64,000 nucleotides of DNA from Candidatus Woesebacteria bacterium (GTDB lineage Bacteria; Patescibacteriota; Microgenomatia; UBA8517): positions 628,549 to 692,548 of the forward strand of contig CP058602.1 in NCBI GenBank assembly GCA_013426185.1, read 5' to 3'. A model generated the notes under the pieces. The model had not been told where the DNA came from, did not search any database, and was given only the letters and a program-made list of their open reading frames with translations. Of this stretch, positions 2,157 to 51,843 are shown one piece after another (the first letter of the stretch is position 1; every line of letters begins with the position of its first letter). Both the position numbers and the translations under genes were made by a program.

Positions 2157-3195
2157 AAAAGTAAATATAGATAAAATCTGCGACGTCCTAAAAAAGGGTG
2201 GTCTTGTTATTATGCCAACCGAAACTGTTTATGGCGCTTTTGTTGACGCAACGAACCCCAAAGCGGTAGAAAAGCTCAATCAATATAAAAAAAGGCCTTT
2301 TGGCAAGCCTTATTCGGTTGCAGTCTCGGATCAAAAGATGGCAGAAAGATATGTTTTTCTTAACGAAACTGCCAAGAATCTTTATCAAAATTTTCTGCCT
2401 GGTCCACTAACCATTATTTCAAAAGGCAAAGGTAAAGCAGCAAAAGGAGTTGAATCAGAAACAGGAACTTTAGGAATTAGGATCCCAGATTACAAATTAG
2501 TAATAGAGGTCATCAAAAAATACGGCAAGCCACTTACTGCCACATCCGCCAACCAAAGTTACAAGAAAACGCCTTATAGAGTAAGTGACATTCTAGAGAA
2601 TATAAGCGAAAAACAAAAAGGGTTGATTGATATTATCATCGACGCCGGAACTCTGCCCCCCAACAAGCCATCAACTGTAATTGATACAACAGGAGATGAC
2701 GCTTTGATCTTAAGAAAAGGAGACGTTGAAATTAAAGACAAAAAAGAATTCCTTTCAAAAAGCGAGAAAGAAACAGAAGAACTGACAAAAGAAATCTGGT
2801 TAAAATTTAAAAAATTCAAAGGGCAAAGAGCGATTATCTTTGCTTTGGAAGGAGAAATGGGAGCAGGAAAAACAATATTTACCAAAGGTTTAGCAAAAGC
2901 TTTGGGGGTAAAAGAGGAAATTGTCTCTCCAACTTATGACCTATTAATTGAATATCAAACCCAAGAAAAGGTCTCTCTGGTTCACATCGACACTTGGCGG
3001 ATGATAGAGCCAAGCGAAATAGAAGAAGTAAAACTCAAAGACAAAATTTCAGACCACTCGGTAATTGCCATTGAATGGGCAGATAAAGTTGAACAGATAA
3101 TACGTAAATACAACGAAGAAGCAATTGTAATTTGGGTTAAGATAGAATATGCCAACAAAGAAAATCAAAGAAAAATTTTCTGGGGCATACTATAA
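2137..3195 (+). CDS. Fused L-threonylcarbamoyladenylate synthase (TsaC/YrdC/Sua5 domain) and TsaE (P-loop ATPase) - t6A biosynthesis
   Basis: N-terminal YrdC-like region (MKIIQIEK…IMPTETVYGAFVDATNPKAVEKL). C-terminal TsaE/YjeE-like Walker A (ALEGEMGAGKTIFTKGLAKALG…SPTYDLL). ATG at 2137 preferred over the TTG at 2092 that overlaps the previous gene. Confidence 0.7.
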   Translation: MKIIQIEKVNIDKICDVLKKGGLVIMPTETVYGAFVDATNPKAVEKLNQYKKRPFGKPYSVAVSDQKMAERYVFLNETAKNLYQNFLPGPLTIISKGKGKAAKGVESETGTLGIRIPDYKLVIEVIKKYGKPLTATSANQSYKKTPYRVSDILENISEKQKGLIDIIIDAGTLPPNKPSTVIDTTGDDALILRKGDVEIKDKKEFLSKSEKETEELTKEIWLKFKKFKGQRAIIFALEGEMGAGKTIFTKGLAKALGVKEEIVSPTYDLLIEYQTQEKVSLVHIDTWRMIEPSEIEEVKLKDKISDHSVIAIEWADKVEQIIRKYNEEAIVIWVKIEYANKENQRKIFWGIL

Positions 3196-4269
3196 ATGAA
3201 AAATTATATTCTCTCAATTGACACATCTTGCGATGAAACTGCAGCCGCTATAACTCTTGATACCAAGGTTATCGCGAGCAAAGTCTGGTCCCAAGCTTCT
3301 CTTCATGCCAAGTTTGGTGGGGTCTACCCTTCCCTTGCCAAAAGAAAACATGAGGAAAGGATTGATTTTGTTATTAAGCAAACGCTTAAAAAAGCAAAAT
3401 TAGAAATAAAAGATATTTCAGCTATCGCCGTTACTGTAGGGCCAGGTCTTGCTCCCGCGCTTGAGGTTGGTATTCAAAAAGCAAAAGAATTGTCTCTTAC
3501 ATTTAAAAAACCACTTTTTGCTGTCAATCATGTTGAAGCACATCTTCTCTCACCCTTAATTGGAAAAAGCTTTGAGGAAATTAAACAATACTTTCCCGCT
3601 TTGGGATTAGTCGTCTCAGGGGGAAATACACAATTAATATTTACCAAAAAACCGGGAAAATATAAGATAATCGCTGAAACAATCGATGACGCTTTAGGTG
3701 AAGCACTTGACAAAGGAGCGCGTGCTCTGGGTTTGGGCTACCCCGGTGGGCCCGTTCTTGAAAAAATAGCTGAAGAATTCAAAGCCAATAAAAATCTCAA
3801 AAATCCCCTACCCCTTCCTTTTGCTGGGCAAGAAAAACTTAGGAAATTTAGTTATTCGGGCTTAAAAACTGCTCTTGTTAGACTAATTGAAAAAATAAAA
3901 AAAGAAAAAGGCAGGCTTAAAAAGGAAGATATCATAAGCCTTGCTTATTTTTACCAGGAAAGAGCTTTCAATCATATTGAAAGGATAGTTTTGTTTATTC
4001 TTAAAAACCAAAAAGAAAAACCAAAAAGCTTTCTTGTAGGTGGCGGGGTTGCCGCCAACAACAATCTTCGAAAAAAACTGCGCAAAATAGCAAAAAGCAA
4101 CAACTTAAAATTAATTTTTCCACCTCAAAAAAAATACTGCGGTGACAATGCAGCAATGATAGGGGTTGCTCTTGCGATTAATCTCAAAGAAAGAAGTGCT
4201 AAAAATGTAAATCCTCAAAAAATAGACAGAATACCAAGGCTTAAATTGACTGAAAGCAAAATATATTAA
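3196..4269 (+). CDS. tsaD: tRNA N6-adenosine threonylcarbamoyltransferase TsaD (Kae1/YgjD family)
   Basis: N-terminus MKNYILSIDTSCDETAAAI plus HxxH metal-binding region (VNHVEAHLL) and GGVAAN motif. Confidence 0.85.
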   Translation: MKNYILSIDTSCDETAAAITLDTKVIASKVWSQASLHAKFGGVYPSLAKRKHEERIDFVIKQTLKKAKLEIKDISAIAVTVGPGLAPALEVGIQKAKELSLTFKKPLFAVNHVEAHLLSPLIGKSFEEIKQYFPALGLVVSGGNTQLIFTKKPGKYKIIAETIDDALGEALDKGARALGLGYPGGPVLEKIAEEFKANKNLKNPLPLPFAGQEKLRKFSYSGLKTALVRLIEKIKKEKGRLKKEDIISLAYFYQERAFNHIERIVLFILKNQKEKPKSFLVGGGVAANNNLRKKLRKIAKSNNLKLIFPPQKKYCGDNAAMIGVALAINLKERSAKNVNPQKIDRIPRLKLTESKIY

Positions 4270-6454: not shown

Positions 6455-7014
6455 GCTAGAATCTTTCGGCAGCCTTTCCTTATACTTGCTTGTGAGGATT
6501 GATCTAAGTCAAAAATTTAACTCAAAAATTAAAACTCAAAAGTTAAAAATATAATTCAAAACTTAAAAATCAAAAGTCAAAAATTAGATTACGGATTACA
6601 GAATACAGATTAGATAACAAAATTCCAAATTACAAATTACAAACTACAAACAAATTCCAAGCTCCAATAAACAAACAAATTACAAAAATTAAATTCTAAT
6701 TTCTAATTTCTAAATTCTAAACCCTGAACCAGAATAAATTCGATTCAGGGCAGGCAAATTCCAAATTACAAACAAATAAATTCCAACTTTTAACTTTTAA
6801 CTTTGAACTTTTAACTATTTATTAATTTTGCTTTCTACTTACTACGTTCTACTTTCTACTTGCATTCCTTGCATAATACATAATACAAAATACTAAATAC
6901 CAGCTTTTGACTGGCTCCGATGTCCGATGTCCGACATCCGACGGCCGATGTCTGATGTCCGACGTCTGATGTCCGAATTCTTTTAACTTTTAACTTTTAC
7001 TCTTTTACCCAATA
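6455..7014. repeat. Dispersed AT-rich repeat family, copy R1 (inverted relative to R2/R3); includes a 7-bp tandem tract (tccgatg-like x9, 6916..6978) and the hairpin ccctgaacc…gattcaggg
   Basis: Reverse complement of 6640..6900 matches 33800..34080 at most positions by eye. The hairpin at 6721..6749 is matched by 33962..33990. The heptad tract is matched in reverse complement at 52210..52260. Confidence 0.7.
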
Positions 7015-7989
7015 TTATTCTCCAACATTAAATTTGGCAGAAGGCGTAGAAGTAGGGGTGTTTGTTGAATTCAGAAATTCGAAGCTCGAGGTCAATCCAG
7101 GCACTAAATTCTCAAAACCAGCTTCTCCTCTTGAATAATCTAAAATAAGGACTTTTTTATTAGTATCTGGATCTTTAAAAACAAAAAACACCGGGCCTCC
7201 TTCAACTTTTGGATTGTAAGATATCAAATCACGAGAACCAATTTTTTCATCAACAAACGAATTTTTGATATCTGCATAAGTTATTACAGGATTAAATTTA
7301 CTCGCCTCTTCTACCAAGATCTCTATTAAATCTTCGGAGCTTAAGACAGGCAAGACTTTTAGTTCAAGCATGGTTTTATTATCTTCTCCTGCCAAGCTAA
7401 AAACTAACAAGTCGCTCTTATTGGTTGGTATTAGATCGGGAGGATATTTTACAATGAAAGAATCACCTCGATAACTAGCCCAATTAGTAGTTAATTTTTC
7501 AAAAGAAATGGGTGTGGGAACAATAACAGCTTCGTCAGACTGATTGGTCTGAAGGGATGGAGTAACAGCCTTCTTTAAATTCAACCTACCACTTTTCCAA
7601 CCACTAATTAAATAAAGACCTAGTCCGAGAACAGAGGTTGCAAACAGAAGTAATGCTAGGGTAAATATAATTTTCTGGTTTTTATCTCTATCTAAAGTAT
7701 TGTTATCTCCTGAAACGTTGGCTTGCTGAGAAACATAATTAACCGCAACAAATGACTCTCCAACTTTATTTTCGGATTGTAAATTTTCAACCGGAACAGG
7801 TGTTGGTTGCTGACCTTGCGGAGAAGCTGCGGTTGTTTTTACTTCAACTGGCTGAGTCGTTTGATTAGAGGAAACAAAAGGCTCATTTTGATTGTTTTCT
7901 TTACCAAGAGACTCAGGGATAGAATTATTTGCACCACCAGAAGAGCTTGCTAAATTCTGATTTTCATCCATATTTATATTAAAACACAA
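7015..7989 (-). CDS. Hypothetical membrane-anchored protein (N-terminal S/N/Q-rich low-complexity region, one TM, C-terminal ectodomain)
   Basis: 324-aa ORF. Hydrophobic segment IIFTLALLLFATSVLGLGLYLI. No recognisable catalytic motif. Confidence 0.5.
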   Translation of the reverse strand: MCFNINMDENQNLASSSGGANNSIPESLGKENNQNEPFVSSNQTTQPVEVKTTAASPQGQQPTPVPVENLQSENKVGESFVAVNYVSQQANVSGDNNTLDRDKNQKIIFTLALLLFATSVLGLGLYLISGWKSGRLNLKKAVTPSLQTNQSDEAVIVPTPISFEKLTTNWASYRGDSFIVKYPPDLIPTNKSDLLVFSLAGEDNKTMLELKVLPVLSSEDLIEILVEEASKFNPVITYADIKNSFVDEKIGSRDLISYNPKVEGGPVFFVFKDPDTNKKVLILDYSRGEAGFENLVPGLTSSFEFLNSTNTPTSTPSAKFNVGE

Positions 7990-15607: not shown

Positions 15608-17002
15608 ATGATAAATGAAAGTCAAAAAGAACAAATCTGGCAAGATTGCCTCGGCGATATTAAAGTATCTGTTTCGCCAGCCATATTTTCTACCTGGTTT
15701 TCCCAAACGTATATAACCAAATTGAATCAGAAAGAGGATAGAGTTGTTGTAGAAATTGGTTGTCCATCCTCGTTTGTTAAAAATACTATTGAAAATAGAT
15801 ATTATGGATTAATTCAAGACACCCTAAATAAAATCATAGGACAAAAATGTGATGTTCTTTTTGAAATTAAAGCAAAAAAAGAAAACAAAAGTCAGGAAAT
15901 AGCTTTAACGCCATTATTTCAAGAAAAAAAAGAAAGGGAAGAAAAAAAGGATGAAACCTTCCTTGAGGAACTAAAAAAATCAAGACTTAGACCTTTTTAT
16001 ACTTTTGAAAATTTTGCTGTATCATCTTCTAACCAAATGGCTTGGGCTGCTTGCGAGGCAGTGGCAAAAAACATAGGCAGTGCTTACAATCCACTTTTTC
16101 TGTGGGGCGGAGTAGGTGTTGGAAAAACCCACTTGATGAATGCAGTTGGTTATTATGCTAAGAAAAACGACATTAATAAAAACGTTTATTTTTGCACAGG
16201 AGAAGACTTTACCAACGACATTGTTGAAGGAATAAGAAATAAAACCACGCAAAAATTTAGAAACAAGTATAGAAAGCTAGATATTCTTTTGATTGATGAT
16301 ATACAGTTTATCGCTGGTAAAGATGCTGTTCAGGAAGAATTCTTTCACACATTTAATGCTATTGTTGCAGCAGGAGGTCAAATTATTTTAACTTCTGATA
16401 AACCACCATCTGAAATATCAAAACTAGAGGAGAGGCTAAGAAGCCGTTTTGAAGCGGGTTTAATTGTAGATATTGCTCCGCCTGATTTTGAATTAAGGTG
16501 CGCTATCACCCAAATCAAAGCTAAAGAAAAAAACATCAATTTGGAAATGAATATAGTTCAAACAATAGCCGCCAATCTTGATTCGGCAAGAAAGATAGAA
16601 GGTTTTCTCATAAGGCTAAGAAGTGCCGTTGAAATTAATAAATATCCTGAAATTACAGAAGAAATAGTAGAAAATCTTTTGGGTAAAAGAGATCAAGAAA
16701 TTGAAAAGAGAAAAAAAGTAAGTAGTGAAGATGTAATTGAAGCAGTTTGCAAACAATACACTCTCAAGAAAAAACAAATACTTGGCGATTCGAGAGTTAA
16801 AAATTTTGCTTTACCACGACAGATTTTAATGTATCTGTTAAGAACAGAGCTTAATCTTCCACTTCAGGAGGTGGGTAGAATTATTGGAGGAAGAGATCAC
16901 ACGACTGTAATGCATGCTGTGGAAAAAATAACCAAGCTTGCCTCGGAAAGTGTGGATATCAGAGAGGATATAACGGGGATAAAAAAAACACTTTGGGGAT
17001 AA
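15608..17002 (+). CDS. dnaA: Chromosomal replication initiator protein DnaA
   Basis: AAA+ Walker A (GGVGVGKTHL), Walker B (LLIDDIQF). C-terminal DnaA box-binding HTH (…LPLQEVGRIIGGRDHTTVMHA…). Confidence 0.9.
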   Translation: MINESQKEQIWQDCLGDIKVSVSPAIFSTWFSQTYITKLNQKEDRVVVEIGCPSSFVKNTIENRYYGLIQDTLNKIIGQKCDVLFEIKAKKENKSQEIALTPLFQEKKEREEKKDETFLEELKKSRLRPFYTFENFAVSSSNQMAWAACEAVAKNIGSAYNPLFLWGGVGVGKTHLMNAVGYYAKKNDINKNVYFCTGEDFTNDIVEGIRNKTTQKFRNKYRKLDILLIDDIQFIAGKDAVQEEFFHTFNAIVAAGGQIILTSDKPPSEISKLEERLRSRFEAGLIVDIAPPDFELRCAITQIKAKEKNINLEMNIVQTIAANLDSARKIEGFLIRLRSAVEINKYPEITEEIVENLLGKRDQEIEKRKKVSSEDVIEAVCKQYTLKKKQILGDSRVKNFALPRQILMYLLRTELNLPLQEVGRIIGGRDHTTVMHAVEKITKLASESVDIREDITGIKKTLWG

Positions 17003-17204: not shown

Positions 17205-18299
17205 ATGAAACTTCAGGTTGTGCAAGAAGACTTTAAGAAAGCTGTTATTATTGCTTCTCGCTTTTCGAGCGCAAGGCCACAAATTCCAGTTTTGTCTAAT
17301 TTACTACTTTCAACAAGTAATAATAATTTAACTATCTCTGCTACCAATTTGGAAATATCTATTAATTTTAAAATAGGAGCAAAGGTGGAAGAAAAAGGTG
17401 ATATTACAGTTCCTGCAAAGTCTTTGGCTGAGATAGTGAGTAATTTAAATCCGGGTGTAATTAAATTAAAATCAGAAAAGGAACAACTAACTCTTGAAGC
17501 TGAAAATTTTAAATCAAAACTTTTGGGAATAAATGCTTCTGAATTTCCCAAAGTTCCAAAAGAGATGACAGGTAGTATGATCGAGATTCCGTTTGGTTCT
17601 TTAGTCCAATCTTTGTCTAAAGTTGTCTTTGCCTCCTCATATGATGAAACAAGGCCTGTTTTGACGGGAATACTTTTAATGCTTGATGAAGGTAAATTAA
17701 GTTTGGTGGCAACTGATGGTTACCGACTTTCTGTTTCTCAAATAGAAGGAAAATATCAAAGCGATGTTAAGAAATTAATAGTTCCAAAATTTATTTTTAA
17801 CGAGATTCCAAGAATTGCAACAGGCGAGAATATAATTTTTTCTTTTGATACTAAAAACAGTCTGGTTCTTTTTAAAACTAAAGAGGCGATTTTATCATCT
17901 CGTGTTATTGAAGGTGTGTATCCTGATTTTCAAAAAATAATCCCCAAAAGTTTTAAAACAAAAGTTTTGATTGATAAAGATGATTTTTTGCGCTTGATTA
18001 AGCTTTCGTCTGTCTTTGCTCGAGATTCTGGTAATGTAATTAAAATTTCAATTAAAAATAATTTGTTGGATGTTTTTGCTGAAAGCCAATATTCTGGTTC
18101 ACAAAAAAGCTCGGCTGAAGCAAAAGTTGAGGGTGATGATGTAGAAATTGCTTTCAATTACAAATTTTTAGAAGATTTCTTGAATTCAGTATCAGGCGAG
18201 ACTGTTTCTCTTGAGTTGAATGACTCAAGTTCTCCTGTTGTTTTTAAAGATACTTCTGATAAAAATTATCTTCACTTAATAATGCCGGTTAAAATTTAA
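17205..18299 (+). CDS. dnaN: DNA polymerase III beta sliding clamp
   Basis: N-terminus MKLQVVQEDFKKAVIIASRFS… and three-domain length typical of DnaN. Position after dnaA. Confidence 0.85.
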   Translation: MKLQVVQEDFKKAVIIASRFSSARPQIPVLSNLLLSTSNNNLTISATNLEISINFKIGAKVEEKGDITVPAKSLAEIVSNLNPGVIKLKSEKEQLTLEAENFKSKLLGINASEFPKVPKEMTGSMIEIPFGSLVQSLSKVVFASSYDETRPVLTGILLMLDEGKLSLVATDGYRLSVSQIEGKYQSDVKKLIVPKFIFNEIPRIATGENIIFSFDTKNSLVLFKTKEAILSSRVIEGVYPDFQKIIPKSFKTKVLIDKDDFLRLIKLSSVFARDSGNVIKISIKNNLLDVFAESQYSGSQKSSAEAKVEGDDVEIAFNYKFLEDFLNSVSGETVSLELNDSSSPVVFKDTSDKNYLHLIMPVKI

Positions 18300-22320: not shown

Positions 22321-24300
22321 TTATTGAATAATATCAGTTTTAATAGATATTTTTGGTTGCTCTTGTTGTGTCTGATTAAGTGCCACGTCACTTTTATTTG
22401 ATAATTCTATTGGGTTACTGGTTATAAGTTGATGTTCCTCAGGTGAAGCAACTACTCTAATAGGAGCATGGTGCGGGCCGGCGAAGAAGATTCCCTCTCC
22501 AACATTGGCTGAAAGCAAGAGCTGCTTTTCTCCTTGTGAGAGATAAAAAACTTCACCCACGCGGTCTATAGCAGTTGGCGATTGTTTTAATAGGACTCTT
22601 AGGGCGCTGTTTGTTACAATGGCTTTACCAATATCTTGAGAAAGGAAATCTTCTACATCTTGAGTAATAGTTGTTAATCCTAGGAAGTATTTTCTTGCTC
22701 TTTTAACAACGCTCCATAAAAACTGGGCTGAATCTTCATATCTCATCATATGCCAGGCTTCGTCAACAATTAGAATTCTTCTTTTGAGGTTTCTTTGTAC
22801 ACGAGTCCAAATAAAATCAAGAATCATAAACATAGCAATAGGGCGAAGAGCCTCTTGCATATCTTTAACTGAAAAAACTGTAAAGGGATTATTGATGTCT
22901 ATATTTGTTTGTTTGTCGAAAATGCCCACAAAACTTCCTTTGACAAATCTTTCTATTCTTGAAGCAAGATCAAGCGCATCTTGAGTTTCCATACCAATTA
23001 ATGTTTTATAAAGATCTTCCATAAGGGGGGGTTCTTTTTTTTGGGTACTAGGATCTTGGGTTATACCCTTTGCGTGGTATGTTGCCACTATGGCGCGGTC
23101 AAGAAGGGCTTCTTTGATAGGGTCAAGCTTCCCCATAATAACTTTAAAGAATGAATGCAGAGTGAGAATTTTTAAGCCTAGTTGATTTTCTCCCTCTGTG
23201 TAAACTTGAGAGAGATCAAAAGGATTAATCTTTGAGGGAGAGTTGAAAGAAAAGGAAATATATTCTCCTCCTACCGCCTCGCAAAGAGGTTTGTATTCTG
23301 CTTCAGGATCAAGAATGATTACTTCGGTTCCAAGCATTAAACTTCTAACAGACTCTAGTTTTACAAAGTATGATTTTCCTGCTCCAGAAGTTGCAAAAAT
23401 TGTCATATTTGAATTTTCAAGAGAAAATCGGTCAAAGATAATAAATGAGCCGTTTTGTGAATTAATGCCATATAAAACACCTTCATCTGATGAAAGTTCA
23501 GCTGATGTTAAAGGAAAGGTAGTAGCAAGAGAGGTTGAATCCATGTTGCGGGTTATTGCTAGTTTGTTAAAGCCGAAGGGAACTGTGGTTAAAAAGCCAT
23601 TTTCCATATCAAGTGTTGCTTTTTTGGCGATAATCATCAACGAGCCAAGGGTTGACTCTACCTGTTTTGTAATATGATCTAATTCTTCTATGGTCGCAGC
23701 TGGTATGGTTATGTAAAATGCAAACTCAAAAAATCTTTCAGCACCTTTTACTAATTGTTCTTGGAGGGTAAGAGCGTCCTCAAGTTTTGCCTGGGTGTTG
23801 GGATCAATTACCTTACCTCTTTCGATATCGGTTGCAATTTCAGCTTCCATTTCAGTAATTTTTCTTCGCAAATCGTCAAGAACACTTTTCCCTTCGATAG
23901 GATAGATATAGAAGGAAATATCAAGAGAATTATTAAAGTTAATTATGGGTTCAAGCCAACCTGGGCTGACAAAGCGTGGATAACCTGAAACAAAGATAGT
24001 TCGAAAATAAGTGTCGTTGATTTTAATATAATCAAAGTCGGTTTCAATAATTTTGGGAGCGATAGCATCAATCAATTCGACCTTTTTGGTAAAAATATCA
24101 ATACTGGGATTACTTATTTCCGGCTTTTCCTCAGTTGATTTTACCGTTGAATCCAAATTTAAATCTTTTACACTATTTTCTTTATTCTCGACTGGTTGAA
24201 GATTGTTTGGTCCATAAGTAGGCTCTGGCGTTTGATAGAGAACTTCTTGATTATCTTTTTTTGTTTCTTCTTTGTTTTTTTTCTTTAAGATGTTAAACAT
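22321..24300 (-). CDS. VirB4/TrbE/CagE-family type IV secretion ATPase (ATPase body)
   Basis: Walker A FATSGAGKSYFVK. Walker B RILIVDEAWHMM. Conserved TQ motif (LTTITQD). Start taken as the internal MFNILKK methionine rather than the 24366 start that overlaps the upstream ORF. Confidence 0.75.
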   Translation of the reverse strand: MFNILKKKNKEETKKDNQEVLYQTPEPTYGPNNLQPVENKENSVKDLNLDSTVKSTEEKPEISNPSIDIFTKKVELIDAIAPKIIETDFDYIKINDTYFRTIFVSGYPRFVSPGWLEPIINFNNSLDISFYIYPIEGKSVLDDLRRKITEMEAEIATDIERGKVIDPNTQAKLEDALTLQEQLVKGAERFFEFAFYITIPAATIEELDHITKQVESTLGSLMIIAKKATLDMENGFLTTVPFGFNKLAITRNMDSTSLATTFPLTSAELSSDEGVLYGINSQNGSFIIFDRFSLENSNMTIFATSGAGKSYFVKLESVRSLMLGTEVIILDPEAEYKPLCEAVGGEYISFSFNSPSKINPFDLSQVYTEGENQLGLKILTLHSFFKVIMGKLDPIKEALLDRAIVATYHAKGITQDPSTQKKEPPLMEDLYKTLIGMETQDALDLASRIERFVKGSFVGIFDKQTNIDINNPFTVFSVKDMQEALRPIAMFMILDFIWTRVQRNLKRRILIVDEAWHMMRYEDSAQFLWSVVKRARKYFLGLTTITQDVEDFLSQDIGKAIVTNSALRVLLKQSPTAIDRVGEVFYLSQGEKQLLLSANVGEGIFFAGPHHAPIRVVASPEEHQLITSNPIELSNKSDVALNQTQQEQPKISIKTDIIQ

Positions 24301-25003
24301 TTTGATTTTCCTCCTCCTTTTTAGGAACCGGCGGCTTTGAATTAAAAATATTATAGTAGAGATCAATTAATTGGGCTGTAGTTAGCTGTCTTAATGTTAT
24401 ACCCAATCTCCTTGCCTGTCTTATTAAATGATCTCTTTTTGGGTAAAGTGAGATTTTGGCTTTTTTTAAAGCGTAAGATTTTGGGAATGGAAGTTTTTGC
24501 CCTCTTTTTATAATTGTCGAGGCCGATTTGGCTATTCCCATTTCAAGTGGGCTAAAAGGAACAACTATGTAAAAGCTTTTCCCCAATACATTTCTTTTTT
24601 TAATAATTTCATTTACAAAGCTTTTGTAACGACTCATTAAAGAAGCAAGTTTTGGATTTTTAATCTTTTGTTCTGCTGACTCAAGATATTCTATGTATTT
24701 TGAAATATCTTTAATTTGCGAGCGAACAATTATCTGAATTGGGAAAGAAAGCGAGTTTAGAAGCGCAGCATAAGCAAAAATGACTGCTTGTTGTTCTTTT
24801 TCTGAAAGCAAAGAAAAATTAAGAGAAGTTGACTCAAGCACTATTGCAGCTCCGCCATCTTTAAAAAGAACAATATTATCGACAATATCGGCAATGGGTA
24901 GAAAATCTTGAGTAGTAGAAATAATAGGAGTATCGGGCATACTAAGGTAGGGTATTTTTAGAGGTATTTTTTTAATTTTGTCTTTCATATTAGTTAATTG
25001 CAT
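24293..25003 (-). CDS. Protein resembling the N-terminal (CagE_TrbE_VirB-type) domain of VirB4; possible split VirB4
   Basis: Segment …FLPIADIVDNIVLFKDGGAAIVLESTSLNFSLLSEKEQQAVIFAYAALLNSL… resembles the VirB4 N-domain pattern. It lies immediately upstream of, and overlaps, the ATPase ORF in a different frame. Confidence 0.4.
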   Translation of the reverse strand: MQLTNMKDKIKKIPLKIPYLSMPDTPIISTTQDFLPIADIVDNIVLFKDGGAAIVLESTSLNFSLLSEKEQQAVIFAYAALLNSLSFPIQIIVRSQIKDISKYIEYLESAEQKIKNPKLASLMSRYKSFVNEIIKKRNVLGKSFYIVVPFSPLEMGIAKSASTIIKRGQKLPFPKSYALKKAKISLYPKRDHLIRQARRLGITLRQLTTAQLIDLYYNIFNSKPPVPKKEEENQNV

Positions 25004-26042
25004 TTGGTGTTGTTTGCGTTGATTTGGCTCTGATTAATATAGGTGGAATGATTTCTCCTTTTGCTTCAAAAGTGGCAGGTTCAAATTCATAACCTTCTTT
25101 CTCAGTAATAATATCGTATTGTCCGTTGGCAAGCGCGGTGACGATCATAAAGTGGCCGAGTTTATTTGACCTTATAGCACGAACAGGTCGGCCGGCAATA
25201 TCTCTTATTTCAAGTATTGCTCCTTCGATAATTTTTCCATTTTGATCTAACACTTGTCCTGTTATCGTGTTCGGAATGGTTGGTGGAAGTGGAGGTGCTG
25301 CTTCGGCTGAAAACTGAACTTGCTGTGATGCTTTTGGTGGCTCTTTTAGTATAGGAGTAACCTGTTGAAGGGATAAGGAAGGCTGTGCGTTTGGTTGTGT
25401 TTCAGCTATTTTTTCTTCGACAACGATTTTGGGTCTGAACGATTTTGGTTGGGTAGTGGGTGCAACTACTGTCTGAGGTCTAACGGGCGCTTGATTAATA
25501 ACTACTGGAGTGGGAGTAGGAGTAGCAACTTGAGCCTGGTTTGCGGATTGACCTTCTTTGATGACCACATTTCCTTGTCTGAAAAGGCTCAATATTCTTG
25601 AGAGAAAATTTTCCTCACCGCTTTCTAATTTATTAAGAGCTCCCTCGTTTTCAGTTGGCACTTTTTTAAGGTATTCTTCAACTTTTTGTTCAGCTTGTGT
25701 TTGTGGAGCTTGAGCTTGAGCCATCTCTTCGTCTTGAAAGAATTTGTAGCCAGCTTGGTTTTTTTGCCAAAGGTAAATGGTAGGGGAATATACAGAGCGA
25801 AAGAAGGCAATTATCCAACGGCTCAACGGCCTTTCTTCAAAAGGTAAAAATGCAAGAGCTGCTCCAAGCGAAACAGAAAACAAAATTAATGGCCATTTGA
25901 TAAAAGGATGAAGGCCAGTTGAATAGATTAAAAGACCCACTAAAGCTCCACCCCCAAGCTGGAAGAATTGTTTTAAAGTCATATCTCCTACCAATCTGAA
26001 CTGGTAGGAACTTATCTGTTGTGGTATCGGATGAGTCTCCAT
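24990..26042 (-). CDS. VirB3/PrgI-like two-TM membrane protein with Pro/Gln/Thr-rich linker and C-terminal beta-sandwich (carboxypeptidase-regulatory-like) domain
   Basis: Two N-terminal hydrophobic helices (GGGALVGLLIYSTGL…, WPLILFSVSLGAALAFL). Position upstream of VirB4. C-terminal GQVLDQNGKIIEGAILEIRD…GHFMIVTALANGQYDIITEKEGY pattern. Confidence 0.4.
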   Translation of the reverse strand: METHPIPQQISSYQFRLVGDMTLKQFFQLGGGALVGLLIYSTGLHPFIKWPLILFSVSLGAALAFLPFEERPLSRWIIAFFRSVYSPTIYLWQKNQAGYKFFQDEEMAQAQAPQTQAEQKVEEYLKKVPTENEGALNKLESGEENFLSRILSLFRQGNVVIKEGQSANQAQVATPTPTPVVINQAPVRPQTVVAPTTQPKSFRPKIVVEEKIAETQPNAQPSLSLQQVTPILKEPPKASQQVQFSAEAAPPLPPTIPNTITGQVLDQNGKIIEGAILEIRDIAGRPVRAIRSNKLGHFMIVTALANGQYDIITEKEGYEFEPATFEAKGEIIPPILIRAKSTQTTPNAIN

Positions 26043-26084
26043 TTTCAGGTAAAAGGCAAGAGGTAAAAGGTAAAAGTAAAGATT

Positions 26085-26459
26085 TTATATCTTTTCTCTT
26101 GCCCTTTTTCTTGATCCATATAATAATTTTTTGTTCTCAACAATTAGATTTGATACCTCGTTAAAATCATCTTTTCCTATATATTTTAATTCCAGAGATA
26201 TATCAATTAAGACTTCAAGCTCAGTCAAAGAGCCTATTGAGATCGTAAGGAACCTTGAATATTCTTTAGGTTTTTCTTTTATATAACCTTCTACAATATT
26301 GGCAACGACTGATATTGCTGCCCTTCTTATTTGAGGAACAAGGCAGTAAAATTCTTCTTTGGGATAGGAATTTGTGAGGCGGTATATCATTAGAACTAAT
26401 TGTTTTGCTTTTTGATAGGAAATTAATTTCTGATAACTTGTCTTTTGTTGTTTTTCCAT
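26085..26459 (-). CDS. Four-helix-bundle protein (23S rRNA intervening-sequence protein family)
   Basis: Signature YQKAKQLVLMIYRLTNSYPKEEFYCLVPQIRRAAISVVANIVEGY. Flanked on both sides by inverted gtaaaag/ttaaaag-type repeats. Confidence 0.75.
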   Translation of the reverse strand: MEKQQKTSYQKLISYQKAKQLVLMIYRLTNSYPKEEFYCLVPQIRRAAISVVANIVEGYIKEKPKEYSRFLTISIGSLTELEVLIDISLELKYIGKDDFNEVSNLIVENKKLLYGSRKRAREKI

Positions 26460-26544
26460 AGTATTCCTTTTAACTTTTAACTTTTACCTACATATAACTT
26501 TACCCCGTGAAGAGTCTTGTGCAACCCCTCAAAGGTTTTCACAG

Positions 26545-28449
26545 GTGGATAAAAATGATATAATAATCCAAATGACAGAAGGAGAACAACAAATACCAAG
26601 GGCTGAATCTGCACCTAAAGGGTTGGTTCCCGAAAAGTACCTTGCTTTTAAAGGGTCACTGTTTTTCGGGACTGAGGATGAATTGAATAGTTTTAAAGAG
26701 GGATTAAAAGATTTATCAGATCCGGAGCGAGAGATTGGGGAAAGAGTTTTGAAGTTGCATAGGATAATGGCAGGTTTATCCACATCTTCGCTACAAGGTG
26801 AATTAGAAGAGATTTATAAGACAGCTAAAGATAACAATTTACCTGATGATAATGAGTTGTTTGTTTTTGCCGCTTCGGTTCTTTCAACCGAGATAGGACA
26901 GAGAATGACATCTTCCGGTCAGGGTCGTGTTGTAGGTGGAGAGGAAAGAGATCCTGCGTTGAATGATTTGCTAGAAATAAATAGACAACTTCTTAAAGCA
27001 ACGACAGGGCAGTTGGAATTACAAAAACAACAAATGGAGTTATTGAGGCGCTCTGGTTTTTCTGGCTTTGTTTCTGCAATGCAAGCAAGAGCGGGTATAA
27101 ATGTCCAGCAGTTTGATACAGAACCTCCGGTTTGGTATGACAGACTTTCTGATGAGTGGAAAAGAGTTGTTAGAACAAATCTGGGCATTTTGATGGGGGC
27201 TTATCTAAAGTTCAGATCGCCTGGCCAGGGGGCGGAATTGATTATAAAGTCTGAAGATATTCGTATCGAGAGGGAGGCCTTGGCTTTTATGTGGGAGAAT
27301 CTACCTGGTTTTAGGATGACCATTGCTACTATTGTTTCTGAATTGTTTGAGGATAGCGAGGGTAAGATGGTGCTCACCAAAGATGGTAAAGACAAATTAG
27401 CAGACACTCCTGCTTATATATCTTCTTTATTGGCGAGATTAAAGAAATATTTTTCAGAAAATCCCGATAGTCTTATGTTGTATTCACAAACTCTTGGGCC
27501 TGAAGATATAAACCCTGATGTTGCCGCCCGATTTGCTGTTTCTGCTGCCTTTAATTTGCTTTATTTGGGTGGTGCTTTTGAATCTGGTGATTTGGGTAAA
27601 GGCCTAAAGGATTCTTATTCTTTTAATCCTTCTGTGAGGACTTTTTGTTTACCTCGAGATCAGGCAAGGTCAAAATACATTTCAGGTGAAGAAGATATAA
27701 TTGGAACAGATGAGGCATGGGGGGGTAAATTGGGAGAGTGGTTTGCCGAGAGAATTAGGCACAAACCCCAATTTAAGCAAGACTTTTTAAACAACAAGGG
27801 AATAACTAGGCTTATGCCTCAAAGATTAATGTATAGTTTGTTTGATTTAACTTACTTTAAAAATGGAGAAACCCTTTCTAAAGCATTATTGTCAATTTTG
27901 TCTCCTGAAAATAGAAGAGAGATTTCAGGTATGGTTGACTATACAGATCCCAACCTGGTTAATTTTAGAGACCTCAAGTATCCAGAGCTTTGGGGCGGAT
28001 ATTCTGATTTAATGGATTCTGCTTTTAAGGTCTATCAGGCAATAATTGGTAAGGCGGACAAGGAATTTGACCGGCAGGCTCTGGCCAACTCTCTTTCAAA
28101 GTTGAGAAAAGATCCTACTTTGAAGGGTATCTATACGGGAGAAAATGGTGAGTGGGTGGTATTAGCCGCTTTGACCTCTCTTCTTGGCGGTCCTAATTTG
28201 TATAGTTCTGAGATACTTTTAAGATTGCCGGATGAAAGTTATGATTATTCGGTTTGGGAATGGCTTGATGATGACAGAGTTTTAGCCGCCTTGCCGAGTG
28301 GGGCAAGAGAAAGGATTTTTAGAGCTTTAAACGCGAAAAATCTAGATTCTACTGTTGATGCATTTTCATCTTTATTTAGCGGCTCCTTTTTGGGTAGAAG
28401 AGAATCTTTAAGAAGGAGAATAAGAAAGGAACAGAAAAGGTGGCGTTAG
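26545..28449 (+). CDS. Hypothetical 634-aa protein on the strand opposite to, and embedded within, the T4SS-like cluster
   Basis: Long ORF with no TM and no recognised motif. C-terminus Arg-rich (RRRIRKEQKRWR). Confidence 0.5.
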   Translation: MDKNDIIIQMTEGEQQIPRAESAPKGLVPEKYLAFKGSLFFGTEDELNSFKEGLKDLSDPEREIGERVLKLHRIMAGLSTSSLQGELEEIYKTAKDNNLPDDNELFVFAASVLSTEIGQRMTSSGQGRVVGGEERDPALNDLLEINRQLLKATTGQLELQKQQMELLRRSGFSGFVSAMQARAGINVQQFDTEPPVWYDRLSDEWKRVVRTNLGILMGAYLKFRSPGQGAELIIKSEDIRIEREALAFMWENLPGFRMTIATIVSELFEDSEGKMVLTKDGKDKLADTPAYISSLLARLKKYFSENPDSLMLYSQTLGPEDINPDVAARFAVSAAFNLLYLGGAFESGDLGKGLKDSYSFNPSVRTFCLPRDQARSKYISGEEDIIGTDEAWGGKLGEWFAERIRHKPQFKQDFLNNKGITRLMPQRLMYSLFDLTYFKNGETLSKALLSILSPENRREISGMVDYTDPNLVNFRDLKYPELWGGYSDLMDSAFKVYQAIIGKADKEFDRQALANSLSKLRKDPTLKGIYTGENGEWVVLAALTSLLGGPNLYSSEILLRLPDESYDYSVWEWLDDDRVLAALPSGARERIFRALNAKNLDSTVDAFSSLFSGSFLGRRESLRRRIRKEQKRWR

Positions 28450-33027: not shown

Positions 33028-33330
33028 TTATTCCTGATAGATGATTTTGAATTGGGTAACGTCTACTCCTGTGAATTGATAAATTAACTTAAGTATTAAA
33101 AAAGACATTGCAAGAAGTACGATGCCAAAGATGGCGTAAGTTATGGTTTTTTTTGCTGCTTCTGCTTGCTGAGGGTTGCCTCCTGCAGTTATATAGTTAA
33201 ATCCGCCAACAATAAGCATTATAAAGAGGACTATTCCTGCAAATTCAAGCGCTACTTTTACTATGTTTCCAAAATAAGTTTCAATGTCTGATAGCTTTGC
33301 TGGTGGTTCTGCTGTTGTTGTTGATTCCAT
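33028..33330 (-). CDS. Pilin-like small membrane protein, paralogue 1 of 8 (VirB2/TrbC-like two-helix architecture)
   Basis: Shared motif ITAGGNPQQAEAAKKTITYAIFGIVLL between two hydrophobic helices. Confidence 0.55.
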   Translation of the reverse strand: MESTTTAEPPAKLSDIETYFGNIVKVALEFAGIVLFIMLIVGGFNYITAGGNPQQAEAAKKTITYAIFGIVLLAMSFLILKLIYQFTGVDVTQFKIIYQE

Positions 33331-33377
33331 CAGAGACGATTATAGCAAAAGCAGTAAAAAAAAAGAAGCTTGAGACT

Positions 33378-33773
33378 TTATTGATTAACAGTAGGAATCT
33401 GAAGGTTAAAAATGTTAACACCAAAGAAGGTTCCAATTAAGCCAGCTATTGCCCAAGCGGCAAAGACAATAACCAAGCCAACCAAGGCAGCAGTAATTTG
33501 AGCTCTAGCTTGTTCTGTTTGACCTTTATCGCCACCCGAGATAATCCAACGTATTCCGCCGATTACCAAAATAAAGAAGAAAACAATTGCTGCAATAACC
33601 AAAGCCAGTTTTAGAAGACCCGCAATAATACCTCCTATGGTTAGGTTAGCGACAGTTCCAGCTAACTGGTCGTTTGTTGGTTTTAAGTTTATTGTATTTC
33701 CTTGAGCCAAGACTTCTAGAGCTAAGCTTTTCATATTTCCCATATTATCTAATTTTTGTATTGTTTTTGTCAA
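33378..33773 (-). CDS. Pilin-like small membrane protein, paralogue 2
   Basis: Motif IISGGDKGQTEQARAQITAALVGLVIV. Two hydrophobic helices. Confidence 0.55.
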   Translation of the reverse strand: MTKTIQKLDNMGNMKSLALEVLAQGNTINLKPTNDQLAGTVANLTIGGIIAGLLKLALVIAAIVFFFILVIGGIRWIISGGDKGQTEQARAQITAALVGLVIVFAAWAIAGLIGTFFGVNIFNLQIPTVNQ

Positions 33774-33775
33774 GA

Positions 33776-34146
33776 GGGGAATTGGTCGAAGCTAATCGGA
33801 AGACTGTATTTAGTATTTTGTATTATGTATTATGGGAAATCCAAGTAGTAAGTAGAACGTAGTAAGTAGAAAGCAAAATTAATAAATAGTTAAAAGTTCA
33901 AAGTGCAAAATTCAAAGTTGGAATTTATTTGTTTGGAATTTGTAATTTGGAATTTGCCTGCCCTGAACCGAATTTATTCTGGTTCAGGGTTTAGAATTTA
34001 GATATTAGAATTTAGGATTTGGACCTTGTAATTTGGAGCTTGGAATTTGTTTGTAATTTGTATATTGGAATTTGTGATTTAATTCTATAATCTATAATCC
34101 AAAATCTATAATCTAATCATCAAGTTTTGATTTTGAGTTAATCCGT
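33776..34146. repeat. Dispersed AT-rich repeat family, copy R2 (inverted copy of R1; same orientation as R3)
   Basis: Matches the reverse complement of 6640..6900 over ~280 bp. Contains the perfect 9-bp-stem hairpin ccctgaacc(n13)ggttcaggg at 33962..33990. Confidence 0.7.
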
Positions 34147-34148
34147 CT

Positions 34149-34472
34149 CTATTCAAGAAAATTTATCCTTAATTCTAGAAGTTTAATTCCAAAGAAGTTC
34201 TCAAGTATATAAATTATAGCGAAAAGAGAAAGAAGAATGACTAGTCCAATGACAGCGTTGGTTATTTTGCTTTTTGCTGATTCGATGGCTGCTTTATCTC
34301 CTCCTGAAATAATCCATTGAATAGCGCCCACAATAATTATGGCTACGAAGATAATGGCGCCAACAATAAAACTTAGACTGATTAAATTTGGCAAGAGCTT
34401 GTTAAAAAACTCAGTTCCTGAAAGGTTTCTGACACCTTCTCCTAGAGCTGGATTTTTAATACCTTGGTCCAT
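34149..34472 (-). CDS. Pilin-like small membrane protein, paralogue 3
   Basis: Motif IISGGDKAAIESAKSKITNAVIGLVIL. Confidence 0.55.
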   Translation of the reverse strand: MDQGIKNPALGEGVRNLSGTEFFNKLLPNLISLSFIVGAIIFVAIIIVGAIQWIISGGDKAAIESAKSKITNAVIGLVILLSLFAIIYILENFFGIKLLELRINFLE

Positions 34473-34475
34473 AAG

Positions 34476-34856
34476 TTATTTCCAAATGTTTTCAACAAAC
34501 TGAGCTGGATTGAGAATTAGGCTAATACCCAAGATTTTTCCCACCAGTTCGATCAGAAAGATGGAAGCGACAACAACGACAAGACCTATAAGAGCGTTAA
34601 ATATTCTTTTTCTGGCTGATTCAAGAGCTCCTTTGTCTCCACCTGATGAGATCATTGCAATTGCACCTGAAACGAAAACAAAAATAAACCAGAGCCCAGC
34701 GACAATAGTTAAAACACCTATAACTCCTGAAATGAAGGAGTTAAAAATGGTTGGGGCAGTTTCAGGGTTGCTTTGTTCAAGACCCAGCCTGCCAAAGCCC
34801 TTAAAGCCCTCATTTGGCGAAAGCGGTATGTCTGCAGCAATTAGTTTTGAGATCAT
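34476..34856 (-). CDS. Pilin-like small membrane protein, paralogue 4
   Basis: Motif ISSGGDKGALESARKRIFNALIGLVVV. Confidence 0.55.
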   Translation of the reverse strand: MISKLIAADIPLSPNEGFKGFGRLGLEQSNPETAPTIFNSFISGVIGVLTIVAGLWFIFVFVSGAIAMISSGGDKGALESARKRIFNALIGLVVVVASIFLIELVGKILGISLILNPAQFVENIWK

Positions 34857-35188
34857 AGGCTTGGAATTTTAGGTCTAAGCAAGAAAAAGTAATCGTTGAA
34901 AACCAATTTTCCAAAAATAGCTGCCAAAACAAAAGAGCCAGCTGCAACAGCAAGGCCTAAAAGTGTTTGCCAAATTTTTGCCCAAGCACTTGCTACTTTT
35001 TTAGGATCATCGCTTGCTGAAATGAAAGCATAACCGGCTAGAATTAAATTAATCAAAGCATAAATGCCGGCAATGATTATTAAAGTTCTGAGAATTAAGT
35101 CCAAAAGCTTGCCTATAGCTCCACTTTCAACCGAGCCAAACTTGCTGATTGCTTCAGGTGAATTTATTGGTCCAAAGACTTGTAACAT
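34853..35188 (-). CDS. Pilin-like small membrane protein, paralogue 5
   Basis: Motif ISASDDPKKVASAWAKIWQTLLGLAVA. Confidence 0.5.
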   Translation of the reverse strand: MLQVFGPINSPEAISKFGSVESGAIGKLLDLILRTLIIIAGIYALINLILAGYAFISASDDPKKVASAWAKIWQTLLGLAVAAGSFVLAAIFGKLVFNDYFFLLRPKIPSL

Positions 35189-35192
35189 AAGA

Positions 35193-35513
35193 CTAAATTG
35201 TCGGCTGGGTAATAAAATTGTTACCAGTTATTATTTCAATAATTCTTATTACCCAGTACGCTCCAAATATTATTATAAACCCTATTATAGCAGTTGTGAC
35301 AGCTTTTTTCCCTTTTTCAATTTTTTGAGGATCGGAGGAGCCCGCGCCTGAAATTAGAGAGATTCCGGCGAAGATAAAAAGAAACAAGATTATTATGCCA
35401 CTAACAGCAAAAGATGCGTTTAAGATTAGTGTTATGAGGTCTCCTATTCCTTTGGTGTTGCCAAAAGGAGAACCAAAAGTACTTCCTATGTCAATTGCTA
35501 AGCTTTTCATCAT
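35193..35513 (-). CDS. Pilin-like small membrane protein, paralogue 6
   Basis: Motif ISGAGSSDPQKIEKGKKAVTTAIIGFIII. Confidence 0.5.
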   Translation of the reverse strand: MMKSLAIDIGSTFGSPFGNTKGIGDLITLILNASFAVSGIIILFLFIFAGISLISGAGSSDPQKIEKGKKAVTTAIIGFIIIFGAYWVIRIIEIITGNNFITQPTI

Positions 35514-35830: not shown

Positions 35831-35835
35831 AGTTT

Positions 35836-51668: not shown

Positions 51669-51686
51669 CTTAATTTCCCTTACCTT

Positions 51687-51806: not shown

Positions 51807-51843
51807 AGGAGGGATTGATATCTGTTGTTTTGGCTTTTACATT

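Follow-up and report, generated by a model that had tools for sequence, protein, structure and literature searches.

Four intergenic repeat regions, which we call R1 to R4, lie in a window of 64,000 nucleotides from a Candidatus Woesebacteria bacterium (assembly GCA_013426185.1, contig CP058602.1, positions 628,549 to 692,548 of the forward strand; coordinates below are counted within this window). With somewhat better than even confidence, we read them as gene-less mosaics of heptamer arrays that come from the arms of cassettes resembling the intervening sequences (IVSs) of ribosomal RNA, in which an arm, a gene for a four-helix-bundle protein of the family PF05635 and a complementary arm follow one another, and in which the arms would act by pairing. 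The descriptive part of this reading is well supported by the loci presented here; the mechanistic part, how the arms would work, is what we infer from them.

The family is defined by a period of seven. Tandem Repeats Finder (TRF) assigns this period to more than 25 arrays within R1–R4, with the units AAAAGTT, TTTGTAA/TTTGGAA, TTTAGAA/TTTAGGA, TCCGATG, GTAGAAA, GTATTAT, TCTATAA, AGATTAC and AGGTAAA. When periods from 2 to 15 are compared, strong self-similarity is seen in 28 windows of the scan for period 7, and in 0 for every other period. At a threshold of 17 matches in 21 positions, lag-7 arrays cover 689 nt of the 64 kb, 100% of them intergenic, and 0 nt of the 57 kb of coding sequence! 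The other lags contribute 31 intergenic nt (lag 6), 68 coding nt (lag 11) and otherwise essentially nothing. A preliminary description of this DNA had proposed tandem units of 11 and 20 nt next to the heptad TCCGATG; the heptad stands, and by TRF the longer units are stretches that span more than one heptamer.

Lag-7 arrays occupy five sites, R1–R4 and the flanks of a PF05635 gene, and all five lie between protein-coding or tRNA genes, as opposed to the rRNA helices that harbor the classical IVSs. Using Rfam at the gathering threshold, the only matches in the whole window are tRNAs and a tmRNA; there is no rRNA match, and the repeats have none. The longest stretch of the window without an open reading frame (ORF) of at least 80 amino acids, 743 nt at 61694–62436, has neither lag-7 arrays nor an Rfam match at that threshold.

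The fifth site is a complete cassette around the only PF05635 gene of the window.

26043–26500, minus strand: complete cassette, PF05635/TIGR02436 gene plus two arms.
26085–26459, minus strand: gene for the four-helix-bundle or '23S rRNA IVS protein' (PF05635, E = 6.8e-31; TIGR02436, E = 1.1e-28).
Within about 26463–26490 (plus-strand coordinates): upstream arm, GGTAAAAGTTAAAAGTTAAAAGG; TRF array at 26467–26486.
26047–26082: downstream arm, CTTTACTTTTACCTTTTACCTCTTGCCTTTTACCTG; TRF array at 26047–26080.

The two arms are complementary arrays of the GTAAAAG/CTTTTAC heptamer, and the right one leaves 4 nt to the ATG of the PrgI-like gene that follows (24990–26042). Read on the plus strand, the downstream arm matches a module of R3 with 93% identity over 30 nt, and R1 also ends in the GTAAAAG/CTTTTAC flavor. 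An ORF matching PF05635/TIGR02436 is present in the cassette and missing from R1–R4. In 10 related strains (97–100% identical overall) the cassette arms are identical, with no change in the number of units, and an orthologue of the gene with 63% identity has both matching arm flavor and matching synteny. The encoded protein does not match any transposase family, this 120-aa four-helix bundle is the only gene that we find between such arms, and a comparison with the PADLOC defence families returns just a weak match to AbiB.

Some features of this locus are worth recording in their own right. The last codons of the PF05635 gene (AAAAAGGGCAAGAGAAAAG; 26085–26130) are complementary to the downstream arm at 26047–26082, and form a local hairpin with it in the predicted fold; at locus L247, the right arm overlaps the end of the ORF in the same manner. 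Related contigs show PrgI-like, TraC-like and VirB4/TraG-like genes at 22321–26042.

Is this arrangement particular to one locus? Heptamer arrays flank the gene in 8 of 8 sampled relatives of the window gene. The arms are clearly inverted in most, and in the relatives at 39–63% identity (the subfamily members range over 39–100%) the flanking arrays are inverted arms wherever both sides can be read. Most of these genes are squeezed in between neighbors that run in their own direction; for the four most distant relatives, the gaps are 10–50 nt.

L232: GTAAAAG flavor; orthologue of the window gene, also positioned before a PrgI-like gene.
L247: GTAAAAG flavor; before a PrgI-like gene.
L222, L248 and L250: GTATTTT/GTATTAT flavor; L248 between ferredoxin and PFOR, L250 before dnaJ.
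L251: TTTGGAA/TTTAGAA flavor; between an HlyD-type adaptor and an ABC ATPase.

These three flavors (GTAAAAG, GTATTAT/GTATTTT and TTTGGAA/TTTAGAA) are the main modules of R1–R4. Locus L232 (Woesebacteria GW2011_GWA2_40_7) carries a second PF05635 gene (2984–3384) after its PrgI-like gene; in the window the PrgI-like gene directly overlaps the next gene, a presence/absence difference between the two.

A second protein subfamily provides a controlled comparison. We took 80 metagenome loci picked only for encoding that subfamily, which include 66 genes with complete flanks. Lag-7 arrays are found upstream of 76% of these genes, downstream of 86% and on both sides of 65%, versus 15%, 15% and 4% for 92 control ORFs drawn from the same loci; the values for lags 5, 6, 8 and 9 are 0–14%. 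Of the cassettes, 57 of 61 have the direction of their upstream neighbor, and 42 of 56 that of their downstream neighbor. The median gaps to the neighbors are 55 nt upstream and 88 nt downstream, and therefore the arms fill the spacers. The cassettes are wedged into operons with gaps of 10–90 nt, in the direction of their neighbors. Their two arms agree with each other in the core bases: CGG is found with CGG at 29 loci and TAG with TAG at 13, with 0 discordant loci, and positions 5, 12, 19 and 26 of the arms pair as G:C or T:A.

Plasmids of cultured strains tell the same story, with flanking heptamer arrays at 7 of 7 distinct PF05635 loci.

Nostoc flagelliforme and Aulosira plasmids: perfect AATTCAA x4 / TTTTGAA x4–5 arms.
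Anabaena cylindrica pANACY.01 (L238) and Nostoc sp. TCL26-01 (L243): GTAAAAA/AGTAAAA arms; gene between cas2 and cas1.
Pseudanabaena galeata plasmid (L245): CTTCnnn arms; cas1 locus.
Bernardetia plasmid: AAAATCT arms.
Chondrinema plasmid: AACTGnn arms; between genes of an RND (resistance-nodulation-division) pump.

Three of the seven lie between or adjoin cas1/cas2, and one lies between RND pump genes. At L238 and L243, both from Nostocales, the PF05635 gene is on the strand opposite to the cas genes. Cassettes adjoining cas1/cas2 may explain why 23S_rRNA_IVP is listed in an older catalogue of metagenome cas genes (PMC3936711).

The reach of the family becomes apparent when following a single module. 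The 22-nt TTTAGAA module GTTTAGAATTTAGRWWTTAGAA occurs exactly once in each of R1–R4, and 0 times in 100 shuffles. Scanning 596 Gb of species-representative genomes (one genome per species) finds exact matches in at least 120 stretches from about 17 phyla, where a rough estimate of the chance expectation is about 1 to 13. By record titles, the matches come from many groups of the candidate phyla radiation (CPR), Nitrospirota, Nitrospinota, Bacteroidota, Verrucomicrobiota, Planctomycetota, Omnitrophota, Cyanobacteria, Acidobacteriota, Gammaproteobacteria, Syntrophia-like Desulfobacterota, Bdellovibrionota, Caldithrix, Schekmanbacteria and Clostridia, together with an actinomycete and a Pacearchaeota archaeon; the cultured Mucilaginibacter pineti and Flavobacterium stagni are among them. 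Because several matches have GC-rich flanks, the spread is not one of mis-binned CPR DNA. A phage origin receives no help from 2.9 million viral contigs, of which 1 has the TTTAGAA module and none the GTATTTT module, and a BLAST of R1 against plasmids returned one irrelevant match only.

The module is intergenic in 120 of the 120 matches listed. In 42 of these, the module has a complement (no more than 5 of 22 positions mismatched) within 300 nt of it toward the GTTT end, which is the loop side; on the other side, the number is 2. The usual form is therefore a long imperfect palindrome with heptamer arrays for both arms, as in AAATCCTAAATACTAAATTCTAAAC ... GTTTAGAATTTAGATATTAGAATTTAGGATTT. An iterative search with the window protein identifies a PF05635 ORF in 14 of the 120 listed loci, at a distance of no more than 600 nt from the module in about 8 cases, and in the gene-bearing loci the gene sits between both arms. 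The left arm reads (AAATCCT/AAATTCT)n-AAAC, followed by about 8 nt and the ATG; on the right, the stop codon is followed by about 35 nt and then by TTTGAATTT-GTTTAGAATTTAG..., which makes a TTTGAATTT-GTTTAG junction. The gene-less palindromes retain the junction sequence CTAAACAATATC. They are multi-copy and always intergenic, and some lie inside operons (the copy at L117 is between atpD and atpC). 

Could all this come from ordinary heptanucleotide simple sequence repeats (SSRs), including the short tandemly repeated repetitive (STRR) class, which arise by slippage in AT-rich intergenic DNA and are copied by recombination? The association with PF05635 would then be a by-product, both accumulating in the few intergenic spacers that tolerate them. 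Among long SSRs, heptanucleotides are reported to be the commonest class in many prokaryotes, and slippage has been proposed for them (Mrazek et al. 2007, as represented in PMC4679880). Intergenic TAACTGA heptamers occur in Beggiatoaceae, Cyanobacteria and Bacteroidetes, several flavors of the window have no gene partner that we could find, and even the flanks of our control ORFs have more lag-7 arrays (15%) than arrays of other lags (2–4%). However, slippage alone offers no account of inverted complementary arms around one gene (the 65% versus 4% above), and it leaves unexplained the complete core-base concordance of paired arms as well as the conserved junctions that are not repeats (AAAC and 8 further nt ahead of the ATG; TTTGAATTT-GTTTAG following the stop). 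Nor does it fit with an exact 22-mer far above chance across phyla, or with an arm copy number that stays constant across the 10 strains. We regard this explanation as unlikely.

We return to the cassette. It would be a selfish, IVS-like insertion dependent on host read-through transcription, which fits the observations because the cassettes are co-oriented with their neighbors and leave no room for a promoter. The arms would pair, most likely in RNA as they do in rRNA IVSs, and the pairing would insulate or release the insert by means of a double-strand-specific nuclease such as RNase III. Slippage and recombination may keep the arrays uniform and shuffle them between sites, and the shuffling would leave behind solo arms and mosaics such as R1–R4. 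The arrays in the window would not have any dedicated function for the host. Their likely effects would be incidental: hairpins at 3′ ends, long transcribed leaders before tRNA-Asn and dnaG, breaks in assemblies, and substrates for rearrangement around the origin. A close precedent is the IVS of the Coxiella 23S rRNA, where an S23p ORF lies between terminal inverted repeats and a 28-bp stem is cut by RNase III (PMC4990558); it is regarded as selfish, and versions without the ORF exist (Warrier et al. 2016, PMC4990558). Sources also give the name S23p to PF05635 homologues.

Several observations weigh against this reading. Predicted folds give it little help: only R1 is clearly more stable than shuffled sequences (minus-strand RNA, z = −4.1, with long-range AAAAGUU:AACUUUU pairing), R2 has z = −1.7 on the minus strand and −2.4 on the plus strand, R3 has z = −0.9 and R4 z = +0.3. 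Pairing cannot directly account for R2, R3 and R4, because these arrays are for the most part one-sided and predicted to have little structure. Even the window cassette has a minimum-energy fold with a closing stem of only ~10 bp and z = −0.4. In the second subfamily, the two arms of a locus are pairable at 76% of positions, compared with 70% when partners are shuffled (74% being the maximum of the shuffles), and the variable triplets of the heptamers are often mismatched. Mismatches of the G:U type are as common as those of the A:C type (107 vs. 100), and so nothing specifically favors pairing in RNA over pairing in DNA. The TAG or CGG core type is shared by the nearest protein neighbors in 41 of 42 cases, and because the type follows close protein relatives, the covariation between arms reflects few events; mean protein identity is 0.70 within and 0.68 between core types. 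Moreover, no remnant of a PF05635 ORF was found inside R1–R4, and the flavors TCCGATG, TCTATAA, AGATTAC and GTAGAAA are not tied to any PF05635 gene in the loci examined. Finally, PF05635 proteins are described as functionally uncharacterized (PMC11270868), and the mobility of the cassette is presumed.

Many of the same facts can be read differently, and the main rival to pairing is a protein-binding model. The arrays would be binding sites, one heptamer per unit, either for the four-helix-bundle protein of the cassette or for a single-strand-binding host protein, for example of the cold-shock type; the arms would resemble the subterminal repeats of transposons or an autoregulatory operator, and solo arrays like R1–R4 would serve as decoys, sponges or non-autonomous partners. 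Each arm repeats a four-base core 4–5 times at intervals of 7 nt, and the shared consensus dominates over the pairing, as indicated by the 70% of positions pairable with arms from other loci and by the mismatched triplets. One-sided regions such as R2–R4 make sense as binding arrays and not as stems. The PDB relatives 2gsc and 2rld are entries of five chains each, and the protein of the window weakly matches Avd, a protein of diversity-generating retroelements. Avd forms pentamers that are basic and have affinity for nucleic acids. The binding of cold-shock proteins to heptamer repeats, with one protein on each heptamer, is reviewed in PMC4679880. On the other hand, one protein subfamily (39–63% identity) occurs with three different heptamer flavors, which argues against strict sequence recognition by the protein, and the perfect concordance of core bases between left and right arms fits pairing equally well. 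We hold the binding model to be a serious rival, but rather doubtful.

As for R1–R4 themselves, the preliminary description held that R1 and R2 are inverted repeats bracketing a 27-kb segment that contains the origin, and that R3 and R4 share their modules, and this view is borne out. A repeat finder aligns the reverse complement of R1 to R2 in three collinear arms (6755–6866 / 33838–33949, 112 nt, 93% identity; 6676–6772 / 33939–34035, 97 nt, 91%; 6566–6674 / 34026–34134, 109 nt, 77%) and in a fourth (6872–6920 / 33786–33834, 84%). A MAFFT alignment shows at least 8 modules in identical order over ~350 nt, with exact runs of roughly 30–55 nt. The similarity is not mere composition, which had been named as the outcome that would overturn the claim. 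R3 (52095–52657) and R4 (56586–56710) have modules in common with R1 at 75–94%. Both dnaA (15608–17002) and dnaN (17205–18299) lie inside the bracketed segment, and the cumulative GC skew has its minimum near 13–15 kb; because the two genes are inside and the skew turns there, the segment holds the likely origin. The reported positions next to genes are correct as well: R3 adjoins dnaG (ATG at 52658), R4 adjoins tRNA-Asn (56719), and a gene for a pilin of the type IV secretion system (T4SS) is beside R2.

6506–7005, minus strand: R1, heptamer-array composite between the convergent genes valS (ends 6454) and 7015–7989 (minus).
R1 modules (plus strand), first part: A-rich AAAAnTn arrays 6506–6586; AGATTAC x3.9 6586–6612; AAATTAC x4.4 6620–6650.
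R1 module (plus strand): TAAATTC x4.6 6690–6721, of left-arm type, terminating in AAATTCTAAAC.
R1 modules (plus strand), continued: AACTTTT x5 6785–6821; CTTTCTA x4.4 6831–6861; CATAATA x3 6872–6900.
R1 modules (plus strand), last part: small hairpin 6899–6915; TCCGATG x8.7 6916–6976; CTTTTAA/CTTTTAC 6980–7005.
6722–6750, plus strand: GC-rich hairpin CCCTGAACC-N11-GATTCAGGG, with its R2 twin at 33961–33989.
33786–34140, plus strand: R2, inverted paralogue of R1, between two co-directional minus-strand T4SS-pilin genes.
R2 modules, first part: TGTATTA x4.3 33805–33834; AAGTAGA x4.4 33843–33873; TAAAAGT x5 33883–33919; TTTGGAA x3.6 33932–33956.
R2 modules, last part: TTTAGAA x4.4 33990–34020; TTTGTAA/TTTGGAA 34017–34080; TCTATAA x4.6 34084–34115.
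52119–52648, plus strand: R3, between tRNA-Arg (ends 52078) and dnaG (ATG 52658).
R3 modules, first part: GTATTAT x3 52139–52160; GTAGAAA x4 52173–52201; CGGATAT x7.6 52205–52257.
R3 module 52321–52350: AGGTAAAAGGCAAGGGGTAAAAGTTAAAAG, 93% identical to an arm of the window PF05635 gene.
R3 modules, last part: GTTTTAA x9 52439–52501; TTTAGAA x4.6 52542–52573; TTTGTAA x10.7 52577–52648.
56591–56707, plus strand: R4, TTAAAAG x3.9, TTGTAAT x3.4, degenerate TTTGKRA units, then TTTGGAATTTGTTTAGAATTTAGGATTTAGAA.

The final stretch of R4, TTTGGAATTTGTTTAGAATTTAGGATTTAGAA, is a typical right arm of a cassette, with neither a gene nor a left arm, and it stops 11 nt before tRNA-Asn. The GC-rich hairpin had been assigned to every copy; it is present in R1 and R2, one base away from the positions given earlier, and absent from R3 and R4 (2 matches to the pattern, 0 expected). 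It sits precisely where the inner part of an arm (TTTGGAATTTG) meets the outer part (GTTTAGAATTT), a place that is filled by other CCTG...CAGG/CGGG hairpins in loci L017 and L049.

Three CPR loci (L095, candidate division WWE3; L027, Gracilibacteria; L025, Saccharibacteria) carry TTTAGAA arms with the heptamer flavors GGGGCTA and GTTACTG, and have short GC hairpins, GTCATCCTGAA...TTCAGGATC or GTCATTCCCGC...GCGGGAATC, similar to the CCCTGAACC hairpin of R1 and R2. R2 interrupts a run of short minus-strand genes (33028–36375), of which the four scanned are Pfam T4SS_pilin, with more in related contigs. Ahead of R3, copies of the 5′ part of tRNA-Ser (GGTGGGTTGGCCGAGTGGTTTA...) at 51669–51726 and 51826–51883 lie between annotated tRNA-Ser genes (one of them 51912–51997); these two have no ARAGORN or Rfam call, and could be tRNA fragments, pseudogenes or halves of an interrupted gene.

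The neighborhood of gene starts had suggested a function as promoter, UP element or curved DNA. The repeats would serve dnaG, tRNA-Asn and the pilin gene in this way, or as contingency loci tuned by unit number. R2, R3 and R4 do adjoin gene starts, AT-rich heptamers readily yield −35-like and −10-like hexamers, and 7-bp promoter repeats tune expression in Haemophilus and Vibrio, as far as described in PMC12721329 and bioRxiv 10.1101/2021.05.14.444153. But the evidence goes mostly the other way. Promoter and terminator scans of R1–R4 show no clear enrichment over shuffles, R4 being a partial exception: sigma-70-like sites number 4 vs. 2.8 in shuffles for R1, 1 vs. 3.6 for R2, 2 vs. 2.4 for R3, and 3 vs. 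0.7 for R4, where two of the three are on the strand opposite to tRNA-Asn. R1 lies between two convergent 3′ ends. The T-rich strand of R2 is antisense to both neighbors, and a good promoter for the pilin gene, TTGACA-18-GATAAT (33773–33744, minus), is outside R2. The orientation of the elements relative to neighboring genes is inconsistent, and a period of 7 bp would not keep in phase with the turns of the DNA helix. Upstream of the R4 array, at 56581–56589, is the extended −10-like box TGATATAAT, the only good one there, and because of its position the array would be transcribed as a leader of tRNA-Asn, downstream of the box instead of an upstream element. The absence of unit-number variation in the cassette arms of the 10 strains argues against a contingency role. 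A regulatory role of this kind is, to our mind, very improbable.

As side notes to the above, the extended −10-like motif AAAAATGATATAAT is found a short way upstream both of the R4 array (56576–56589) and of the start region of the gene at 26545 (26549–26562). A phase-variable contingency repeat was considered and rejected, with identical cassette arms in 10 strains, and R1 and R2 varying by replacement of blocks.

A likeness to MITEs (miniature inverted-repeat transposable elements) had also been suggested, and part of it holds. Gene-less palindromes of 120–140 nt with such arms exist in many other phyla in several copies per genome (at least 4 matches in one Nitrospirae metagenome-assembled genome (MAG), at least 4 in a Schekmanbacteria MAG, and 2 on one contig), and assemblies break at the repeats. 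A true MITE, however, would move in trans, with a transposase supplied from another place in the genome, and no transposase is linked to the elements; we did not meet any related autonomous element that encodes one. R1 has long-range complementary arrays, whereas R2–R4 are mostly one-sided; R1–R4 differ in length and module content and are not copies of one unit; and the differences between strains are internal block replacements. For these elements to be true MITEs seems to us hardly credible.

The suggestion that recombination between R1 and R2 could invert the origin segment fares better as a potential than as an event. The two are, judging by sequence, long and similar enough to be plausible recombination substrates, but we find no R1 x R2 inversion junction in public contigs, and only one conflicting join. 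A 49-kb JGI contig (L017) spans R2 in the arrangement of the window, which provides independent support for that junction; in it, ~115 nt of R2 (the hairpin with the TTTAGAA and TTTGTAA arrays) are swapped for a different CCTG...CGGG hairpin. The conflicting join is in contig 17 of GCA_020725745.1, a MAG of the same lineage (DYEL01000017, L001, at 6640–6811), which has an identical valS and the left 312 nt of R1, then a replaced internal block. It departs from the window sequence near 6956, inside the TCCGATG array, and instead of the 27-kb segment there follow a CIRCE-like (controlling inverted repeat of chaperone expression) inverted repeat (TTAGCACT...AGTGCTAA) and then groES/groEL. This valS-to-groES join could be a strain rearrangement between members of the family or a chimeric join of the assembly. 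R1 and R2 differ between strains by block replacements. The same MAG has the 27-kb segment on a contig of its own (27,063 bp) with both ends stopping in repeats (L013, L019), and it is likewise separate in a Logan assembly (26,945 bp, L020). Heptamer arrays break short-read CPR assemblies, to the point of isolating the origin segment as its own contig in two of them, and because of such ambiguous joins (valS followed by groES or by the 27-kb segment), gene order near the arrays is not trustworthy without long reads.

What would the cassette model mean, if true? PF05635/TIGR02436 is a very widespread family of uncharacterized function, and the heptanucleotide repeats of cyanobacteria are said to have been known since 1990 and to have stayed unexplained. 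The physical link between the two, seen from CPR bacteria to Nostoc plasmids, offers a testable hypothesis for both puzzles, and raises the question of whether arms pair and are cut, or are bound by a protein. If the model holds, the finding would deserve real attention. Already known are heptanucleotide repeats, TAACTGA repeats and rRNA IVSs that bear an ORF. We found no paper that links heptamer arrays to PF05635/S23 genes or gives these module sequences, in a search that most subscription journals lie outside of; absence from the searched literature is not proof of novelty.

A broader possibility, which we put forward tentatively and would not bet on, is that PF05635 genes with paired heptamer arms constitute one selfish cassette class across phyla, of which rRNA IVSs, STRR sequences, TAACTGA repeats and R1–R4 are all products. 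The heptamers would be recognition units, each bound by one subunit of a pentameric protein, or paired and then cut, and the gene-less arrays would be non-autonomous derivatives. The cassette class would range over CPR bacteria, Cyanobacteria, Bacteroidota, Nitrospirota, Planctomycetota and others, and gene-less module arrays occur in a DPANN archaeon as well.

Several known systems invite comparison. The bacterial interspersed mosaic elements (BIMEs) and repetitive extragenic palindromes (REP) of E. coli and the pneumococcal BOX elements are modular intergenic mosaics with ordered modules, tandem module repetition and hairpin potential; they act on mRNA ends and recombination, and are specific to a species or genus, whereas the window modules turn up again in different phyla and go together with a protein-coding cassette. 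Subterminal repeats of transposons, such as the AAACGG hexamers of Ac/Ds, are short motifs inverted at the ends of an element. With these and with MITEs our family shares inverted end motifs and gene-less derivatives that outnumber the gene-bearing copies, but we found for it no transposase and no evidence of transposition.

The cyanobacterial STRR sequences, reportedly described by Mazel and colleagues in 1990, are said to be tandem heptanucleotide repeats. Tandem 7-nt units, intergenic placement and many dispersed copies are shared by the window arrays with STRR sequences and long SSRs (for the latter, Mrazek et al. 2007 as represented in PMC4679880), and a direct link is provided by the Nostocales plasmids with perfect AATTCAA/TTTTGAA arrays around PF05635 genes. 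In contrast to strict STRR sequences, the host here is a CPR bacterium, the units are degenerate (70–95% matched), several flavors are strung together in conserved order, and inverted pairs surround a gene.

The TAACTGA direct repeats of Beggiatoaceae, Cyanobacteria and Bacteroidetes, for which translational regulation has been proposed (MacGregor 2015, PMC4679880), lie just upstream of start codons and bring stops in all three frames after three units. Their patchy distribution across phyla suggests horizontal spread (PMC4679880), as does that of the window modules. The heptamers differ, and MacGregor 2015 (PMC4679880) does not mention PF05635/S23 genes or inverted arms, but the AACTGnn-type arms of Chondrinema hint at a connection.

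Close in composition are the 23S rRNA IVSs of Leptospira and Coxiella, which share with the cassette a protein family between terminal repeats of apparent complementarity (Ralph & McClelland 1993, as represented in PMC4990558; Warrier et al. 2016, PMC4990558), the insertion in a host transcript (presumed for the cassette), the selfish interpretation and the existence of ORF-less versions (PMC4990558). The differences are that the window inserts are in spacers of protein-coding or tRNA operons and not in rRNA helices, that the arms are heptamer arrays, and that most window copies (R1–R4) are ORF-less and often have one kind of arm only. The link suggests an origin for the rRNA IVSs: of a cassette found mostly between ordinary genes, they may be the minority that resides in rRNA.

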